This document shows positions 31,828 through 44,590 of a DNA stretch of 47,650 nucleotides, piece after piece. A program made the position numbers and the translations under genes. The notes beneath the pieces were generated by a model. That model was not told the origin of the DNA. It worked only from the letters and a program-made list of their open reading frames with translations, and made no database searches. The DNA comes from a virus (lineage: Duplodnaviria > Heunggongvirae > Uroviricota > Caudoviricetes). How positions within the stretch are numbered: the first letter of the stretch is position 1; the number at the start of each line of letters is the position of its first letter. The DNA is taken from the IMG/VR virus record IMGVR_UViG_2541047798_000009, one strand, 5' to 3'.

Positions 31828-32105
31828 TTATCCATCTCCATATTAACAAGAACAATTATCTATAAAATATAGTAAATATGCGGGATCCGGGAGGACTTGT
31901 AACTATCATCTCCGGATCAGCATGTAGTTTTTATTTTTCCGGATGATATATGCCGCAATAATACCTCTGCATACAGATGCCTGCAAATATCTGCGAAGCA
32001 TCCGGCGAGAATAAACAAGGAAGTCTGAGGCTATCTTATATGATAGCCTGTTGCTCAAAAGACAATGATTCACTCATCAGAACCAACAACGCATAATGCA
32101 GATAA

Positions 32106-32182
32106 TGGACCGCCATCGAGGACTCGAACCCCGCGCAGCCAGCTTCGAAGGCTGGCGCTCTATCCCGATGAGCTAATGGCGG
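32106..32182 (-). tRNA. tRNA-Arg (anticodon UCG by hand folding)
   Basis: Hand-folded cloverleaf: 7-bp acceptor, D-arm GCTC/GAGC, anticodon stem CCAGC/GCTGG with loop CTTCGAA, T-arm CGGGG-TTCGAGT-CCTCG, CCA encoded. Confidence 0.7.
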
Positions 32183-32191
32183 TATGTGATA

Positions 32192-32267
32192 TGGTGGCCC
32201 TTGCTGGATTTGAACCAGCGACCTGGCGATTATGAGTCGCTCGCTCTCACCACTGAGCTAAAGGGCC
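32192..32267 (-). tRNA. tRNA-Ile2 (anticodon CAU, ileX/ileZ-like)
   Basis: Sequence GGCCCTTTAGCTCAGTGGTGAGAGCGAGCGACTCATAATCGCCAGGTCGCTGGTTCAAATCCAGCAAGGGCCACCA is very close to E. coli ileX as recalled; anticodon loop CTCATAA. Confidence 0.8.
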
Positions 32268-32307
32268 GGGCGCAGGATAATAACGGTACGTAACTAATTC
32301 TGCAATA

Positions 32308-33096: not shown

Positions 33097-34179
33097 ATGA
33101 AAAAATTAACAGTGGCAATTTCTGCTGTAGCTGCATCAGTACTGATGGCGATGTCTGCTCAGGCAGCTGAAATTTATAATAAAGACAGTAACAAGCTGGA
33201 TCTATACGGGAAAGTTAATGCCAAGCACTACTTCTCCTCTAATGATGCAGATGATGGTGATACTACTTATGCTCGTCTTGGCTTCAAAGGTGAAACCCAA
33301 ATCAACGATCAACTGACTGGTTTCGGTCAGTGGGAATATGACTTCAAAGGCAACCGTGCTGAATCTCAAGGTTCTTCCAAAGACAAAACCCGTCTTGCAT
33401 TTGCAGGCCTGAAATTTGGTGATTACGGCTCAATCGATTACGGTCGTAACTACGGTGTAGCATACGACATCGGTGCGTGGACTGACGTTCTGCCAGAATT
33501 CGGTGGTGATACCTGGACCCAGACAGATGTGTTCATGACTGGCCGCACTACTGGTGTTGCAACTTATCGTAACAACGACTTCTTTGGTCTGGTCGATGGC
33601 CTGAACTTTGCTGCTCAGTATCAGGGTAAAAATGACCGCACTGACGTAACTGAAGCCAATGGTGATGGTTTCGGTTTCTCCACTACTTATGAGTATGAAG
33701 GATTCGGCGTGGGTGCAACCTATGCTAAATCAGATCGCACTGACGGTCAGGTCGCCTATGGTAAGAGCAAATTCAATGCCTCCGGCAAAAATGCGGAAGT
33801 ATGGGCTGCAGGCCTGAAATATGATGCGAACAATATCTATCTGGCTACCACATATTCTGAAACTCAGAATATGACCGTTTTTGGTAATAACCATATTGCA
33901 AACAAAGCACAAAACTTTGAAGCAGTAGCACAATATCAGTTTGACTTCGGTCTGCGCCCATCTGTTGCTTACCTTCAGTCAAAAGGTAAAGACCTTGGTG
34001 TTCATGGTGACCGAGACTTAGTCAAGTATGTCGATGTCGGTGCTACTTACTACTTTAATAAAAACATGTCCACTTTTGTTGATTACAAAATCAACTTAAT
34101 TGACGATAGTAAGTTTACCAAAACAGCTGGTATTGATACCGACGACATCGTCGCTGTAGGTCTGGTTTATCAGTTCTAA
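33097..34179 (+). CDS. Outer-membrane porin (OmpC/OmpF/NmpC/Lc family, 361 aa)
   Basis: Signal peptide [23 protein letters not shown] then [23 protein letters not shown]... and C-terminal ...[11 protein letters not shown]-rich promoter region upstream; antisense to late transcription as nmpC is in DLP12. Confidence 0.9.
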
Positions 34180-34367
34180 TCTGACTTACGAAAAAGATAT
34201 GTTGCGGGAGGCTTTGCCTCCCCAACATATAAGTGGAGCCCTCAAGCCACTTCCTTTAGAAGCACTACCTTGCTTCTTACTATATAAACCTTCTGTTATA
34301 TATTACCCTTTATTTTGGGGGCGTTTCCACGCCCCATTTTTAATAACTTTTAGTAAATAATTGCATA

Positions 34368-34760
34368 TCAATTAGAATTATTAGCAACGATATCCATATC
34401 TAACCGGATATCTAATGCCATTAACATCCCTTCAATTATGCCCTCAGCCTTCTGTAACCTTTTCCCGATATAACCATCCGAGCAGCAATGCTTACTTGCC
34501 AGTGACATGAATGTCATACCACATACATAATAATCTACTAATAAATCGTGTAAATCGCTGTTGTTCTTTTTCAGACGGGCCATGCACCCGCAAATGATCA
34601 TCGCGTCATCGTCACAACATTGCGGGCGAGATTTTACTTTTGAAGGAATTAATCCCTTAAAACCGGCAGCAATGGACGACCAGGTCACATCCTCATGATT
34701 ATTTGCCGCCCATGCGCCCCAGCGTTCAAGAACCATCTGAATATCACGCATTATTCGCAC
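34368..34760 (-). CDS. Late-gene antiterminator Q (DLP12 QuuD-like, 130 aa, GTG start)
   Basis: [60 protein letters not shown]... matches QuuD as recalled. Confidence 0.88.
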
Positions 34761-39427: not shown

Positions 39428-39883
39428 ATGGAAATCAAAGATATTCGCTTAAAAAATCTACAGACGGTAATCCAACGCAGCGGCTTAACCCAGACAGATC
39501 TGGCGTTAAAATGTGAGATATCACCCTCACTTATAAGCCAAATAATGACTAAGCGCAGAAATATGGGAACTGCTCTCGCTAGAAAACTCGAGGGGCGACT
39601 GAGCCTATCAGAAGGATGGTTTGACATCCCCCACTCATTGCTGGATTCCCCATGGCATCTAGCTAAAATGAGGGAAAAGACTGGTGAGACCACTATTGAT
39701 GAACAGCAACTAACTAAAAGAGAGACTCGACTTATTGAGTTATTCAGACAAATGCCTGAAAGCGAAAAAGACAGGATAATCAGTGAGTTATCTGAAAAGA
39801 AACGTAATTTTGACAAACTACTTGATGAGCTAATGGCTGTTAAAGCATCAAGAATGCCGATCGACAAAGACGAAAATGAATAA
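39428..39883 (+). CDS. CI-like repressor with N-terminal HTH and no LexA-type S24 peptidase domain (151 aa)
   Basis: HTH LKNLQTVIQRSGLTQTDLALKCEISPSLISQIMTKRRNMGTALARKLE; C-terminal half is coiled-coil-like with no Ala-Gly/Ser-Lys autocleavage motifs; the track start 39341 is a TTG inside the operators. Confidence 0.6.
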   Translation: MEIKDIRLKNLQTVIQRSGLTQTDLALKCEISPSLISQIMTKRRNMGTALARKLEGRLSLSEGWFDIPHSLLDSPWHLAKMREKTGETTIDEQQLTKRETRLIELFRQMPESEKDRIISELSEKKRNFDKLLDELMAVKASRMPIDKDENE

Positions 39884-39917: not shown

Positions 39918-39989
39918 TTAGCATTTTGCTATTGTCAAGAATAACGCATAGCGCTACATTCACCTCAGCAAGTAAAAACAAGTGAGGTG
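39918..39989 (+). promoter_or_regulatory. P_L-like promoter with operator palindrome TAGCAtttTGCTA and an RBS-sequestering hairpin
   Basis: Palindrome at 39919-39931 matching the O_R motif; -35 TTGTCA (39932-39937), -10 TACATT (39955-39960); inverted repeat CACCTCA (39961-39967) / TGAGGTG (39983-39989) whose right arm contains the GAGGTG Shine-Dalgarno. Confidence 0.45.
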
Positions 39990-39995
39990 AATGTA

Positions 39996-40439
39996 ATGTT
40001 AAATGATAAACATGACTCTTATTCCGTAAACTCTCTGTTGATTTGTGCTCAAGCGGCACTATTAGGCGGTACCGCTTCAAACCATGACGTCATCAACCTC
40101 TTAGATGTTGCACAAGACATCATCTCTTCAACTATGAATTCCTTTACAGATAGTAGCGCTCCCGGCGCTAATGTTGATTTATTTACCAAAGAAGTTAGCG
40201 CTAGTAATTCCCCAGCATTATCTTTCGGTCAACGTATTCTCCAAGCGCGTAAATCAGCAAGTCTTCAACAACATCATATTGCCAGCGGTGCTGGAGTGAC
40301 TGTTCAGGCTGTTTCGTTATGGGAAAATGACTCAGCAATTCCTACTTGCGACAAAATTATCCCATTGGCAAATCTTCTTGGCTGCGATCCAATGTGGTTA
40401 CTGACTGGTGCTTATAAACAAAATCAGGAGGAAGCATAA
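39996..40439 (+). CDS. Hypothetical protein with C-terminal XRE-type HTH (147 aa) at the N-gene position
   Basis: C-terminal SFGQRILQARKSASLQQHHIASGAGVTVQAVSLWENDSAIPTCDKIIPLANLLGCDPMWLL is an HTH_XRE pattern; ATG 6 nt after GAGGTG. Confidence 0.55.
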   Translation: MLNDKHDSYSVNSLLICAQAALLGGTASNHDVINLLDVAQDIISSTMNSFTDSSAPGANVDLFTKEVSASNSPALSFGQRILQARKSASLQQHHIASGAGVTVQAVSLWENDSAIPTCDKIIPLANLLGCDPMWLLTGAYKQNQEEA

Positions 40440-41004: not shown

Positions 41005-41364
41005 ATGACACATGAACCCATTAATACATATCGTCGCCGTATAGCTGTTGCGGCACTCCATCGAATAAAACGTAAAACAGGTGGTAATCTGCTTATTGTT
41101 GACCTTCCGGATGGGAACATTACGACCATAGAAATAACTGAACAGTTTATAAACCAGTTGCTGTTACGCTTCGAAGGTATTACCCGTGGTGAATTGGGCC
41201 GGGTGGAGGGTGAAACCGAAATCCACACTGCATACCAGAATGCTATCGGGATTAATCAACATACTGAATACCTGACTGAAACCGGAAAGTTAATTATAGA
41301 CAACCTTTTTCAAGAGGTTATTGATTACGCGAAAGAAAAATATATCAGCGGAGGAATTAACTGA
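41005..41364 (+). CDS. Hypothetical protein (119 aa)
   Basis: ORF in the early-left operon; coupled to the next ORF. Confidence 0.45.
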   Translation: MTHEPINTYRRRIAVAALHRIKRKTGGNLLIVDLPDGNITTIEITEQFINQLLLRFEGITRGELGRVEGETEIHTAYQNAIGINQHTEYLTETGKLIIDNLFQEVIDYAKEKYISGGIN

Positions 41365-41579
41365 TGGCTAATTTATCCCCTGTATCTGTTGTGCACGAAA
41401 AAGTGCAGATCGTTATGACAATTGAAAATGGCCAAGTCACAGGTGTCTGCAAAGTCCGCGATGGCGAGCTGATTGCCAGCATGGATACATTCATACGGCT
41501 GGCAGAAAGAGCGGGGTATCAGATAACAGCACCTGCTCAGGAGGAAACCGGTGGCATTAACAGCAACACGCATTCCTGA
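41364..41579 (+). CDS. Hypothetical protein (71 aa)
   Basis: Start overlaps the previous stop (ATGA/TGATG-type coupling). Confidence 0.45.
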   Translation: MANLSPVSVVHEKVQIVMTIENGQVTGVCKVRDGELIASMDTFIRLAERAGYQITAPAQEETGGINSNTHS

Positions 41580-41765
41580 GCGGATCCACCGGCAGGCATT
41601 GCAGGTCCTGTTGTTGTACCGATGCCGACGGATATTTCCGCATCGGATACAGCGCACCGGATATCTCAGTCTGAAGGTTAACCGTCGCTGGCGGCTGTTA
41701 TCGAAAGACGACGGCCGGAACTGGGAAGTAATGAGTCATGAACGTTATTCGGGAGAAATAAAGAA

Positions 41766-42158
41766 ATGATCGACAACCGCACCGCCAGCGCCATTGACCA
41801 GGCATTACAGAAACATGATACACCCGTCGGCCCGTTATTTTTTGTAACACGCCACGGAAGAACAAAAAAATGCCTCACTCGAAAAACGGCAATTCGTTAC
41901 CTGGCCTTCTTTATGACCACCCGCGCTTTTGAACGTTCAGGATTCCGACAACGCTATCCTGACAAGCGTTTTATCTTCAACAGGAATGAGATATGGAAAC
42001 GTGGAGAATCAACCACAGAGTATACCCGCGCACACCAGCGAACAATCAGACGACTGCGCAGACTCATCGCCAGGAAACAGTATACAGAAAAATGGTTCAG
42101 AAAATATGACACATGGAGCGCCGGATATTACGAACTGATGGCAACAAAACCATTCTGA
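41766..42158 (+). CDS. Hypothetical strongly basic protein (130 aa)
   Basis: Arg/Lys-rich ORF (…TIRRLRRLIARKQYTEKWFRKY…) suggesting nucleic-acid binding; no domain recognised. Confidence 0.45.
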   Translation: MIDNRTASAIDQALQKHDTPVGPLFFVTRHGRTKKCLTRKTAIRYLAFFMTTRAFERSGFRQRYPDKRFIFNRNEIWKRGESTTEYTRAHQRTIRRLRRLIARKQYTEKWFRKYDTWSAGYYELMATKPF

Positions 42159-42218
42159 CGTAAACGAAATTAACCATGACGCAATTAAATAAGGCAAGCC
42201 GAATACATCAGGAGGACC

Positions 42219-42407
42219 ATGAACATTTATTTCAGAATAGTTATATCACTGGCAATTATCACATGTATTTACGGATTAATCGTTCCGGCCCTCATATCAA
42301 TGAAGGATACGGTAGCAGTGATTTCTGGCTTTGCTCTGGCGTGTCTGACCCCGCCCTGCATTTATGCCATTTATAAGGGTCTTTCTTTTTCTAAGGATAA
42401 AAGATGA
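42219..42407 (+). CDS. Small two-helix membrane protein (62 aa)
   Basis: Two hydrophobic helices (IVISLAIITCIYGLIVPALI and VISGFALACLTPPCIYAIY); its stop overlaps the SPFH gene start by 4 nt. Confidence 0.5.
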   Translation: MNIYFRIVISLAIITCIYGLIVPALISMKDTVAVISGFALACLTPPCIYAIYKGLSFSKDKR

Positions 42408-43231
42408 AAAAATTACTTTTTGCTTTAGCCCTTGTTCTGCCGACCATTGGCCTTGTCGGTTGCGATCGCGTTGAGCCTGGTAATGTGGGCATCAAAGTAA
42501 ACAAACTGGGCGACGATAAAGGCGTCGGTGAAGTGGTCGGTGTTGGGCGCTACTGGACGGGATGGAACACTGAGGTTTACATCTTCCCGACCTTTAAGCA
42601 GATGAAGACCTACGATGATCCATTCAGTTTCCAGATGAGTGACGGTACAACCATCGGCTATCACATCGGCGTGGCCTACAAAGTTGATCCATCCAAAGTT
42701 ACCACAGTCTTTCAGACCTACCGCAAAGGCGTGGACGACATTACCGACACCGACCTGCGCCAGAAGATAGCCGACGCACTCAACCGACTGGCCAGCAAAA
42801 TGACCACCGACAAATTTATCGACGGCGGCAAGTCTGAGCTGCTGGATGCAGCTCTTAAAGACATTCAGGAAGAAATGACGCCCATCGGTATTCAGGTAAT
42901 GAGCCTCTCATATGTGGGTAAGCCGGAGTACCCGCCTACTGTTATCGACAGCATTAATGCCAAAGTCACGGCGAACCAGAAAACCCTGCAACGCGAGCAG
43001 GAAGTAAAACAGCGCGAAGCGGAAGCCAACATGTTGCGCGCGGAAGCTGCCGGACAGGCAGATGCGATTCGCACAAAAGCCCAGGCCGAAGCCGATGCTA
43101 TTCGTTTACGCGGTGAAGCTCTGCGCCAGAACCCCGGTGTTATGGAGCTGGAAGCCATCAACAAGTGGAACGGTACACTGCCGCAATACATGACCAGCGG
43201 TGCCAACACACCATTTATTCAGGTTAAGTAA
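42404..43231 (+). CDS. SPFH/band-7 (HflC/prohibitin-like) lipoprotein (275 aa)
   Basis: Lipobox LVGC after the signal peptide; SPFH-like core and an Ala/Glu/Arg/Gln-rich coiled-coil tail (…QREAEANMLRAEAAGQADAIRTKAQAEADAIRLRGEA…). Confidence 0.65.
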   Translation: MKKLLFALALVLPTIGLVGCDRVEPGNVGIKVNKLGDDKGVGEVVGVGRYWTGWNTEVYIFPTFKQMKTYDDPFSFQMSDGTTIGYHIGVAYKVDPSKVTTVFQTYRKGVDDITDTDLRQKIADALNRLASKMTTDKFIDGGKSELLDAALKDIQEEMTPIGIQVMSLSYVGKPEYPPTVIDSINAKVTANQKTLQREQEVKQREAEANMLRAEAAGQADAIRTKAQAEADAIRLRGEALRQNPGVMELEAINKWNGTLPQYMTSGANTPFIQVK

Positions 43232-43274: not shown

Positions 43275-44024
43275 ATGAATATTGTAACCATCAACAACAA
43301 ACAGTTTCCGGTAATCGAATATCGCGGTCAGCGTGTTGTGACATTTGCAATAATTGATGACGTCCACCAGCGCCCGGAAGGTACCGCCCGTGCTGCGTTT
43401 AACCGCAACCGTTCTCACTTTATCGAAGGGGTGGATTTTCTTGAAATGACTGCGGACGTAATACGTACGGAGTCACTTTCTGATGCCTTTGCCGCGCGAA
43501 CTGCCAAAGGGATCATTCTTTTCGAGTCTGGTTACCTGATGTTGACGAAGCCTTTTAACGATACTCTTGCATGGCAGGTTCAGCGCGAACTGGTTAACAG
43601 CTATTTCCGAACTCACGCGCCGCTGACGGAAATGGAGATGATCGCTGCAATGGCCGCCGATGCCGTTCGCCAGCAGAAGCGCCTGAGTCATGTTGAAGAG
43701 AAGATCGAAACAGTCACCAAAGCTGTGGAGAACATCAAACGCGGCACAATGCGCACCGGATATGTCGGTTACCGCCAGGTGGTAGCCAAAAGCGGAATGA
43801 GTGACGCCAAGTGCCGGAATCTGGTCAACGCCTACCACATCCCTACCGACACGCACGAATTTATGACTCCGGACGGTCTGTTGTCTCGCAGGGCTATCGT
43901 CGAGCTTGAGACATTTATGGCGGCATTCCACCAAATGATGTCAGAGGCTGAACCACGCGGCACACGCTGGTATCACCCGAAGATGGGGCTTTTCCAGGTA
44001 ATCGGATGGGAGGATAAAGCATGA
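43275..44024 (+). CDS. ORF6N-domain protein (putative antirepressor, 249 aa)
   Basis: N-terminal FPVIEYRGQRVVTFAIIDDVHQRPEGTARAAFNRNRSHFIEGVDF fits the ORF6N/AntA-type domain found in phage antirepressors. Confidence 0.55.
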   Translation: MNIVTINNKQFPVIEYRGQRVVTFAIIDDVHQRPEGTARAAFNRNRSHFIEGVDFLEMTADVIRTESLSDAFAARTAKGIILFESGYLMLTKPFNDTLAWQVQRELVNSYFRTHAPLTEMEMIAAMAADAVRQQKRLSHVEEKIETVTKAVENIKRGTMRTGYVGYRQVVAKSGMSDAKCRNLVNAYHIPTDTHEFMTPDGLLSRRAIVELETFMAAFHQMMSEAEPRGTRWYHPKMGLFQVIGWEDKA

Positions 44025-44590
44025 TCATCCAGTCAAAACTTATTCGCGCCGCTCTGGTGTGCGCTGCTAAAAACGACGTTCGTTATTACCTGAACGGTCT
44101 TCACATCACGCCAAAACATATTGAGGCAACCAATGGTTCCGTGGCACTGCGCATGACTCACGGCATCCGGACGAAGAAAAACATCATTGTCCAGTTCGAA
44201 GGTGGCGTCCCGGCCAAAGCCGAAACGACAGAGCTGATTTTTAGTAAAGAGCCGATCGCTGTTCATCGCGACCAGTTTCAGCGCCGACTGTCCATTACCG
44301 GCATTAAATTGGTGGACGGTTGTTTTCCGGATTTGGAACGCATCATTCCGAAAAAATTTGACCTCTGTACACACCCGGTGATCCAGGCGGGTTACCTGAG
44401 TTATCCAGAGAAGATGTTTGGTCGTGAGCGTAAATTTATTCCCGTCCAGTTACGTCCCTCCGGTGACGGGCAAGCGGTCAGAATTCAGTTTGATTCCATC
44501 ATCAACTCAATGTATGGCAATCCTGAATTTGTTGTGATGCCTTGTCGTGATCATGGCGATTTCAACGTGGCTCAGGAGCATCCGGAATGA
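44021..44590 (+). CDS. Hypothetical protein (189 aa)
   Basis: ORF coupled (4-nt overlap) to the antirepressor-like gene; no confident domain. Confidence 0.45.
   Translation: MIIQSKLIRAALVCAAKNDVRYYLNGLHITPKHIEATNGSVALRMTHGIRTKKNIIVQFEGGVPAKAETTELIFSKEPIAVHRDQFQRRLSITGIKLVDGCFPDLERIIPKKFDLCTHPVIQAGYLSYPEKMFGRERKFIPVQLRPSGDGQAVRIQFDSIINSMYGNPEFVVMPCRDHGDFNVAQEHPE

Follow-up and report, generated by a model that had tools for sequence, protein, structure and literature searches.

The viral sequence IMGVR_UViG_2541047798_000009, analysed over its whole length of 47,650 nucleotides (nt) and referred to here as the window, is a complete lambda-like prophage of Escherichia coli VR50, with the host gene btsS at one end and an integrase gene adjoining mlrA at the other. 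It carries a pair of overlapping genes encoding a membrane protein of 62 amino acids (aa) with two transmembrane (TM) helices, called the hairpin in the following, and a 275-aa lipoprotein with an SPFH (Band 7) domain. Conserved gene linkage and natural fusions support the view that the two proteins act as one unit. We tentatively read this unit as a split SPFH membrane scaffold, in which the two genes provide the two halves of an HflK/C-like cage made early in lytic growth. We regard this reading as plausible, if somewhat short of probable.

Linkage and fusion of the two genes

The gene structure is directly supported by the open reading frames (ORFs) of the window. The SPFH ORF begins within the stop codon of the hairpin gene, so that the two genes share the four nucleotides ATGA (42404-42407), and a Shine-Dalgarno (SD)-like AAGGA lies 6 nt before the SPFH start codon.

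We collected 173 loci, consisting of 80 IMG/VR contigs and 80 GTDB species genomes (found by SPFH homology only) together with 13 reference phages, and ran a profile of the hairpin against their 4,667 plus strand ORFs. The profile gave 149 matches, all of which are located 5' of the SPFH gene on the same strand, and 147 of these are either fused to SPFH or not more than 120 nt away from it. The modal spacing between hairpin and SPFH gene is -4 nt, found in 76 loci. A match is present in 78 of the 80 IMG/VR loci, 62 of the 80 GTDB loci and nine of the 13 reference phages, and the positive loci belong to gamma-, beta- and alphaproteobacteria, Leptospira, Bacteroidota and Dependentiae. The hairpin gene is positioned directly upstream of the SPFH gene, mostly with the ATGA overlap, in the phages phiP27, Fraca, P88 (P2-like), KpCHEMY26 (N4-like), EaP8, Gekk3-15 (of Aeromonas), ORM_20 (of Ochrobactrum) and phiE125 (of Burkholderia). 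In the rV5-like Cronobacter phage GAP31 it lies 152 nt from the SPFH gene with one ORF between. Sutterella loci under the profile threshold still have an ORF of 57-64 aa with two TM helices and the turn LP-x-L-I-S-S.

The two halves also occur as one chain. We found at least 16 natural single-chain fusions, which consist of the hairpin, a basic linker, a signal peptide with lipobox Cys and SPFH. Examples are L139, P0029 (E. coli) and P0259; among the top 150 representatives of the SPFH clade 14 are fusions and four more are probable ones. Such fusions support a physical partnership and also the predicted topology, with TM1, TM2, an export signal and an external SPFH domain following each other.

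Three side observations concern the junction between the two halves. The signal peptide and lipobox Cys are kept between the two halves in every natural fusion (P0029, P0259, various chains among P0265-P0366, and L139), and as far as their sequences indicate it is possible that signal peptidase II cleaves a natural fusion, which would make it a polyprotein and not a three-TM protein. The ORF between the two genes of GAP31 (GAP31_160, L003 2667-2831) encodes a soluble protein of 54 aa and overlaps both of them. In Shigella flexneri SFBU1023 (L095; 1234-2000) and E. coli ECMA0423 (L096) an insertion of about 770 bp, whose ORFs are presumably IS1 InsA-like, splits the hairpin from the SPFH gene and alters the hairpin C-terminus, a natural disruption of the coupling.

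The SPFH lipoprotein

The Pfam family Band_7/SPFH (Pfam: PF01145) matches residues 22-208 of the 275-aa protein at E = 8e-31 (107.9 bits; cutoff 23.6), covering positions 2-176 of the 176 in the profile. The protein also matches PHROG 200 (lipoprotein; E = 9.7e-115), and RefSeq already names it 'SPFH domain-containing protein' (WP_000734576.1). By its sequence, it is a divergent SPFH protein. The SPFH gene is strongly conserved, with a ratio of nonsynonymous to synonymous substitution rates (dN/dS) of 0.04-0.06, and the proteins of E. coli phages and Dyella chromosomes share about 40% identity.

The fold is directly supported as well. An AlphaFold2 (AF2) model of the monomer, built from an alignment of 48 sequences, has a mean predicted local distance difference test (pLDDT) score of 81 and an alpha/beta SPFH core, with beta strands at residues 19-94 (the SPFH1 part) and helices and a strand at 96-175 (the SPFH2 part). 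These are followed by a single unbroken helix of 65 residues (178-242, pLDDT 80-91), which is aligned to the coiled coils in HflK, HflC and prohibitin. In Foldseek the best matches were HflC (7vhq_G, 1.2e-13), HflK, prohibitin (8rrh), erlin (9vvg) and human stomatin (9oh9, 3e-11), with E-values from 1e-13 to 1e-11; flotillin (9bq2) was also matched and QmcA (8z5g) more weakly (8e-8), with a probability of 1.00 throughout. The Foldseek alignments span 250-300 columns and include the 65-residue helix.

Among solved structures HflK (7vhq_E) is the best sequence match (E = 2e-4), and the identity to VR50's own HflK is 22%. Orthology to HflK or HflC was considered and rejected, with scores of 25.4 bits against a cutoff of 134.4 for hflC (TIGR01932) and 23.4 against 159.4 for hflK (TIGR01933). 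We likewise rejected the label of a serine protease, as Band_7 is the sole domain detected and a weak match to a 'protease' PHROG (E = 9e-4) covers only the coiled-coil residues 165-256. The label is widespread in GenBank, including the records of phiP27, Stx2-converting phages and EaP8, where the lipoprotein is called 'serine protease' or 'putative serine protease'; it looks like a carry-over of 'membrane protease subunit, stomatin/prohibitin homologue'. In the records of these phages the hairpin ORF is unannotated.

The export and lipobox signals can be read directly from the sequence. The signal peptide ends in the lipobox L17-V18-G19-C20, followed by Asp21 in the +2 position, and Cys20 is invariant or nearly so in the clade alignments A2, A3 and A4. 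Asp at +2 is the signal for retention in the inner membrane of E. coli. From these signals, the SPFH domain is predicted to be on the periplasmic side of the inner membrane.

Behind the long helix the C-terminal tail is disordered in the AF2 monomer (pLDDT < 60) and yet conserved. W255 and G257 are invariant in all three clade alignments. P260 shows no change in A2 and A4 and hardly any in A3, K254 none in A2 and hardly any in A4, and P270 hardly any in either A2 or A4. The tail is a candidate cap or oligomerisation segment, by analogy with SPFH cages.

The first-pass annotation of the window, made from the letters alone, had described a 62-aa two-helix membrane protein overlapping by 4 nt the gene of a 275-aa lipoprotein with an SPFH core and a coiled-coil tail. 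The ORFs, the ATGA overlap, the two AF2 helices of the small protein, the Pfam match, the lipobox LVGC and the helix 178-242 all agree with this description.

The hairpin partner

The AF2 model of the 62-aa protein consists of two helices only, at residues 3-25 and 28-60, with no beta structure. The hydrophobic segments are TM1 at about residues 5-25 and TM2 at about 32-52, and the C-terminal tail is basic. Among 102 distinct family members the mean number of Lys and Arg residues is 1.6 for the N-terminus, falls to 0.5 for the loop and rises to 3.4 for the C-terminus. This charge distribution indicates an N-in/C-in hairpin whose two ends are cytoplasmic. The conserved turn would then lie on the periplasmic side, at the surface where the SPFH protein is expected to have its lipid-anchored N-terminus.

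In the window this turn reads P23-x-L-I-S27-M-K-D-T31. P23 is invariant in the family alignment A1, and S27, K29, D30, T31 and G37 are invariant among close relatives, while the loop pattern S-x-x-[DS]-[ST] is kept across the 102 members. The pattern of the family is G-x-x-x-P-x-[LM]-[IV]-S-x-x-[DS]-[ST]-x-x-V-[IL]-x-G. The dN/dS of the hairpin gene is 0.30 against phiP27 and 0.22 against Fraca, which means purifying selection.

The hairpin matches PHROG 1130 (membrane protein; E = 1.5e-23), a family in the category 'moron, auxiliary metabolic gene and host takeover'. Searches of Pfam (E <= 0.1), NCBIfam and PADLOC gave no match. The first-pass annotation saw in the pair the classic NfeD-SPFH arrangement. 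This identity fails: the NfeD family (Pfam: PF01957) is not matched, 62 aa are too short for two TM helices and an OB domain, the model is all-helical and the SPFH protein is predicted to be exported. Homology to the DUF2065 protein YjeT was tried and rejected too, as hhalign of alignment A1 against VR50 YjeT gave a probability of 0.5% (E = 0.11, 12 columns) and the DUF2065 family (Pfam: PF09838) was not matched. The hairpin is thus, by sequence comparison, a family of its own, distinct from NfeD and YjeT.

Distribution of the module

By tblastn the SPFH protein was found in 780 of 50,697 phage records (about 1.5%). The carriers include the strictly virulent Schitoviridae and Vequintavirinae as well as Ounavirinae, Bruynoghevirus, phiCbK-like phages, Kayvirus, haloviruses, crAss-like phages and megaphages. 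At E <= 1e-30, the SPFH clade comprised 227 clusters when 1.84 billion representatives were searched exhaustively. In E. coli the pair is matched in 535 of 5,426 complete genomes (about 10%), at 418 chromosomal places and at 198 on plasmids, the latter mostly P1-like replicons of about 90-100 kb. Phages carrying the module are temperate, such as lambdoid, P2-like and P1-like ones, as well as virulent, such as the N4-like KpCHEMY26 and the rV5-like GAP31. In phages of gram-negative hosts the pair is found among early or nucleotide-metabolism genes and not among the lysis genes. Distant lineages combine SPFH with other small membrane proteins, namely gp141 of phiCbK, MbpV of Kayvirus and gp52 of PaCe.

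There are also bacterial copies. In Rhodanobacteraceae a chromosomal locus with the module is syntenic in about 20 species, and in Leptospira, Saprospirales and Bacteroidales the module is flanked by housekeeping genes. The copies of Cupriavidus and Sutterella are prophage-borne, with NinB and DUF2303 nearby. We looked at the operon partners of the cellular copies for a clue to the function; the neighbours, which are housekeeping genes or unknown (hemerythrin, EAL, HMG-CoA reductase, NAD synthase and ribonucleotide reductase), gave none. The resident syntenic locus and the housekeeping flanks point to a function that is self-contained. The copies in virulent phages and at resident bacterial loci make a role specific to lysogeny or to CII unlikely.

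Position of the pair in the prophage

The features of the pair are given in Table 1. The pair sits in a run of tightly packed small plus strand ORFs, which extends from two helix-turn-helix (HTH) regulators (39428-39883, a 151-aa HTH_3 protein without peptidase domain, and 39987-40439) to xis and int. This is the leftward operon of the early-left type, between the immunity region and xis/int; the first-pass annotation, too, had placed the pair in the early-left operon. The helicase, primase-like and Q genes are on the opposite strand, divergent from the operon of the pair. In phiP27, Fraca and Stx2-converting phages the pair is likewise near xis/int.

Table 1. Features of the hairpin-SPFH gene pair and their positions in the window
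Feature	Position	Strand	Basis or remark
SD-like AGGAGG	42210..42215	+	3 nt upstream of the hairpin gene start; direct sequence reading
62-aa two-TM hairpin gene	42219..42407	+	ORF; PHROG 1130 (E = 1.5e-23); AF2 model; dN/dS; family alignments A1 and A5
Hairpin turn codons P23..T31	42285..42311	+	Sole strongly conserved segment within the hairpin family
275-aa SPFH/Band-7 lipoprotein gene	42404..43231	+	ORF; PF01145 (E = 8e-31); PHROG 200; WP_000734576.1; AF2 model
Predicted lipoprotein signal peptide (aa 1-19) and lipobox Cys20	42404..42463	+	MKKLLFALALVLPTIGLVG then CDR
SPFH (Band 7) domain, aa 22-208	42467..43027	+	Pfam envelope; AF2 secondary structure
Long Ala/Glu/Gln-rich helix, aa 178-242	42935..43129	+	AF2; counterpart of the SPFH cage wall helix
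Conserved C-terminal tail K254-W-N-G-x-L-P260 ... P270-F-I-x-V-K	43163..43228	+	Alignments A2-A4

A consensus scan, crude as it is, found no promoter-like or terminator-like sites on the plus strand between 41034 and 45749. An autonomous moron with its own promoter and terminator was therefore rejected, as neither was found around the pair, which seems to belong to the leftward early operon like any other of its genes. The GC content rises only modestly over the SPFH gene.

Several neighbouring genes were noted. Directly after the SPFH gene there is an ORF6N/anti-repressor-like gene (43275-44024, plus strand), and the gene order hairpin-SPFH-ORF6N-xis-int is identical in phage Fraca. The likely repressor is the 151-aa HTH_3 protein; its lack of an S24 peptidase domain would fit induction driven by an anti-repressor. 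Two genes ahead of the module, a 72-aa protein (41551-41769, plus strand) has a ParE-like toxin domain (Pfam: PF24732, E = 3e-17) and is overlapped from upstream by a 71-aa ORF (41364-41579, PHROG 340), so that the ORFs at 41364-41769 are a possible toxin-antitoxin pair. The 189-aa protein at 44021-44590 (plus strand) matches PHROG 3007, 'RusA-like Holliday junction resolvase' (E = 6e-65), in conflict with weak matches to DnaN/beta-clamp families (PF02767, E = 5e-3; TIGR00663, E = 5e-4); its RefSeq name in other genomes is 'beta clamp domain-containing protein'. Further away, a porin gene annotated as ompC (about 33098-34180, plus strand) lies between the Q antiterminator gene quuD (about 34368-34751) and a cluster of tRNA genes for Arg, Arg and Ile (about 32017-32268, minus strand), which is upstream of the prophage lysis genes.

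Proposed function and alternatives

As a split membrane scaffold, the pair would work as follows. The hairpin would be inserted in the inner membrane, its N- and C-terminus both on the cytoplasmic side. The SPFH protein would be exported and lipidated at Cys20, and Asp at +2 would retain it on the periplasmic face of the inner membrane. Translational coupling through the ATGA overlap would yield matched amounts of the two proteins. By its long helix and conserved C-terminal tail the lipoprotein would then oligomerise to form a closed ring or dome that covers part of the inner membrane; to our knowledge every solved full-length SPFH protein forms a ring or cage, and we extend this to the lipoprotein by analogy. 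The hairpins would supply the transmembrane fence, which HflK/C, prohibitin and stomatin carry within the same polypeptide, and the scaffold would insulate or stabilise a region of the cytoplasmic membrane. The predicted transcription with the leftward early operon argues for an action in the infected or induced cell, and not for a lysogeny switch. Our best guess for an enclosed client would be an FtsH-type quality-control machine or another machine of the envelope; FtsH suggests itself first, on the analogy of HflK/C and prohibitin, which face outwards.

Several points weigh against this reading. Lipidation, retention, the cage, the timing of expression and the physiological effect are steps that we infer, and the AF2 models are of monomers only. 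The mature SPFH protein of P88 is 93% identical to that of the window, whereas its hairpin is merely 23% identical and its signal peptide is different, so any contact between hairpin and SPFH protein must rest on very few conserved residues. SPFH lipoproteins without a hairpin occur in Cytophagales, Kapaibacterium and Ounavirinae. The +2 residue is Glu, Arg, Ser, Asn or Gly in several SPFH relatives, and localisation may therefore differ between family members. The pair may also be expressed in the lysogen, for example by read-through from the repressor promoter, given that the consensus scan is crude. A last point comes from PM0222 of Pasteurella multocida C48-1, an HflK/C-like protein of 25-35 kDa from a lambda-like prophage, which is released in outer-membrane vesicles, signals via TLR1/2 and contributes to virulence in mice (PMC9872710); by this analogy an outer-membrane location may be possible for the family.

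On the P88 pair we further observed, in a comparison with window positions 42219-42460, that nucleotide similarity begins near SPFH codon 17. Hairpin and signal peptide seem, from this sequence pattern, to have been exchanged as a cassette.

Superinfection exclusion, which the first-pass annotation had also raised, is an alternative that we rate as unlikely. Here, the scaffold would cover or rigidify the inner membrane and block incoming phage DNA, in the manner of T4 Imm and Sp, P22 SieA, Llp, Cor and Ltp. Exclusion systems of temperate and virulent phages are usually early small inner-membrane proteins and lipoproteins, a type that the pair fits in form. The lambda gene sieB lies in the accessory part of the leftward operon, which is where the pair is found, and the PHROG category of the hairpin, already mentioned, is in keeping with such a role. 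In Salmonella phage PhiSH19 an SPFH gene adjoins a gene annotated as superinfection exclusion (PMC3220722). Against exclusion, PADLOC-DB 2.0 has no family matching the pair or two of its neighbours at E <= 0.1, and there is no PHROG similarity to known exclusion proteins. Moreover, the strong conservation of the SPFH gene is unlike that of fast-evolving exclusion factors, and the resident syntenic bacterial copies suggest a general membrane role.

We give about the same low standing to a wider form of the scaffold idea, in which temperate and virulent phages of many lineages build their own periplasmic SPFH cage from a split precursor as a general device of host takeover. Such a cage could sequester FtsH or another envelope machine, block the entry of a competitor's genome or neutralise abortive-infection effectors that attack the membrane.

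Somewhat less likely still is a modulator of FtsH, a phage SPFH protein which mimics or displaces HflK/C and thereby alters FtsH activity, the stability of a CII-like regulator and how often lysogens form. In lambda the FtsH inhibitor cIII is encoded in the leftward operon. The pair is in the corresponding operon, the gene at 39987-40439 codes for a 'CII-like' HTH protein (PHROG 4836), HflK is the closest solved structure by sequence with HflC and HflK among the best fold matches, and the SPFH domain is predicted to face the periplasm as in HflK/C. On the other hand, the protein falls well short of the equivalog cutoffs for HflC and HflK, has only 22% identity to HflK and is encoded by a single lipid-anchored SPFH gene instead of a TM-anchored heteropair. 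FtsH is bound solely by HflK (PMC13220708, PMC12048511), and Arg141, Glu142 and Arg185 of HflK are implicated in binding its periplasmic domain (PMC13220708). Arg141 and Glu142 map to an indel-rich loop, which the window protein lacks and for which 48 family members show no conservation. Arg185 maps to R119 by BLAST and to D111 by MAFFT, so that this mapping depends on the alignment, and the R119 column, which is conserved, is Lys in HflC too. Virulent phages and resident bacterial loci, where there is no lysogeny decision, carry the module. The idea of an effect through HflKC, FtsH and CII, as raised in the first-pass annotation, therefore keeps the HflK/C-like fold on its side and is weakened by the equivalog scores and by the copies in virulent phages and at the Rhodanobacteraceae locus. 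FtsH may be sequestered more broadly, for reasons other than CII, and we include this in the split-scaffold reading.

A role in the timing of lysis or in permeabilisation is doubtful. The hairpin would be holin- or antiholin-like, and the SPFH cage would restrain holins or the pore formers of abortive infection until the right time. Like a class II holin, the hairpin is a small N-in/C-in protein with two TM helices and a basic C-terminal tail, a resemblance that is generic, and in Kayvirus the genes mbpV and mbpS are inside the lysis module, with MbpV likened to holins (PMC7150955). However, about 14 kb from the pair the prophage has a complete lysis cassette of its own, with a class II holin, a lysozyme and a lysis protein, the hairpin matches no holin family of Pfam or PHROG, the pairs of phages of gram-negative hosts are not among lysis genes and the resident bacterial copies have no lysis context.

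Least likely for the window copy, and in our view very improbable, is a virulence lipoprotein of lysogenic conversion, which would be made in the lysogen, reach the outer membrane or vesicles and alter the interaction of host and pathogen, for example via TLR1/2: PM0222 is a precedent (PMC9872710) and VR50 is a human urinary isolate, but Asp at +2 predicts retention in the E. coli inner membrane, the pair lacks a separate promoter and terminator and is part of an operon that should be repressed in the lysogen, and virulent phages and environmental bacteria carry it.

Significance

SPFH proteins occur in every domain of life, and the role of most bacterial ones is still unclear. The module is also present in Stx2-converting phages and P1-like plasmids. 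The partner gene is often unannotated, and the SPFH protein is routinely given the wrong label 'serine protease'. The conserved and often fused hairpin defines a compact two-gene unit, which can be deleted, expressed or purified as one object, and as a counterpart of HflK/C the pair is simpler and probably homo-oligomeric. If the split scaffold shapes the membrane of the infected cell, it would be a new type of host-takeover function of phages. Should the wider idea of a host-takeover cage be true, the module would represent a widespread undescribed class of phage membrane-remodelling or counter-defence systems and a tractable homo-oligomeric model for the selection of clients by SPFH cages. 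Even if the pair only stabilises membranes, it would still be a useful model SPFH cage.

We did not find the hairpin partner family, its recurrent fusion or the spread of the unit described in the full texts that we searched or in any profile library. What appears to be new here is therefore the dedicated hairpin partner family, its fusion to an SPFH lipoprotein and the spread of both over virulent and temperate phages, phage-plasmids and bacterial loci. The finding is not new in kind, given the SPFH superfamily, the existing PHROG families, the RefSeq name and a speculation on HflKC and CII voiced in 2016 for another SPFH gene, of a phage satellite (PMC4936722). In the full-text literature that we searched, phage SPFH genes are mentioned at the level of annotation and we found no functional study; PM0222 is the one prophage SPFH protein for which we came across experimental data.

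Comparison with known systems

The HflK/HflC-FtsH complex (PDB: 7vhp/7vhq, 7wi3, 9cz2) shares with the pair the SPFH fold, the long wall helix and an SPFH domain that faces the periplasm. HflK/HflC is a TM-anchored heteropair, whereas the phage has one SPFH gene with a predicted lipid anchor and no N-terminal TM helix. The host has a parallel architecture in yjeT, a DUF2065 gene of 65 aa with two TM helices downstream of hflK-hflC (VR50 L175 45651-45848), while the phage hairpin gene is upstream and translationally coupled. The arrangement of a periplasmic SPFH protein plus a tiny two-TM protein is thus one that recurs, without homology. We also noted that yjeT is unmentioned in the HflK/C structure papers PMC12048511 and PMC13220708.

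NfeD-SPFH operons (QmcA-YbbJ, 8z5g; YqiJ-YqiK; the archaeal stomatin PH1511 with the NfeD protein PH1510) likewise have adjacent co-directional genes for a membrane protein and an SPFH protein, and as for the pair their products are expected to form one complex. NfeD partners carry an OB-fold domain, in contrast to the all-helical model of the phage hairpin. QmcA, which is NfeD-partnered, faces the cytoplasm with its SPFH domain, whereas the SPFH domain of the phage protein is predicted to be exported.

In the eukaryotic SPFH proteins stomatin and podocin an N-terminal intramembrane hairpin, an SPFH domain and an oligomerising helix likewise build a ring on one membrane face, and the natural fusions of the phage type recreate such a hairpin-SPFH single chain. 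The stomatin hairpin is monotopic with a cytoplasmic SPFH domain, whereas the phage hairpin is predicted to span the bilayer twice, with an SPFH domain that would be exported and lipid-anchored.

In MbpV-MbpS of Kayvirus (Staphylococcus phages K, A5W and 812) a small membrane gene overlaps the SPFH gene by 1 nt, and MbpS is a distant homologue of the window SPFH protein (25% identity, E = 1e-7). MbpV differs from the hairpin in having one TM helix, a long charged tail and no match to the hairpin profile, and MbpS has a TM anchor and no lipobox. The two proteins are uncharacterised and located in the lysis module between lysK and tgl, and MbpV is said to resemble holins (PMC7150955). PM0222, finally, belongs to the SPFH superfamily and is prophage-borne like the window protein, and it signals via TLR1/2 as a lipoprotein would.

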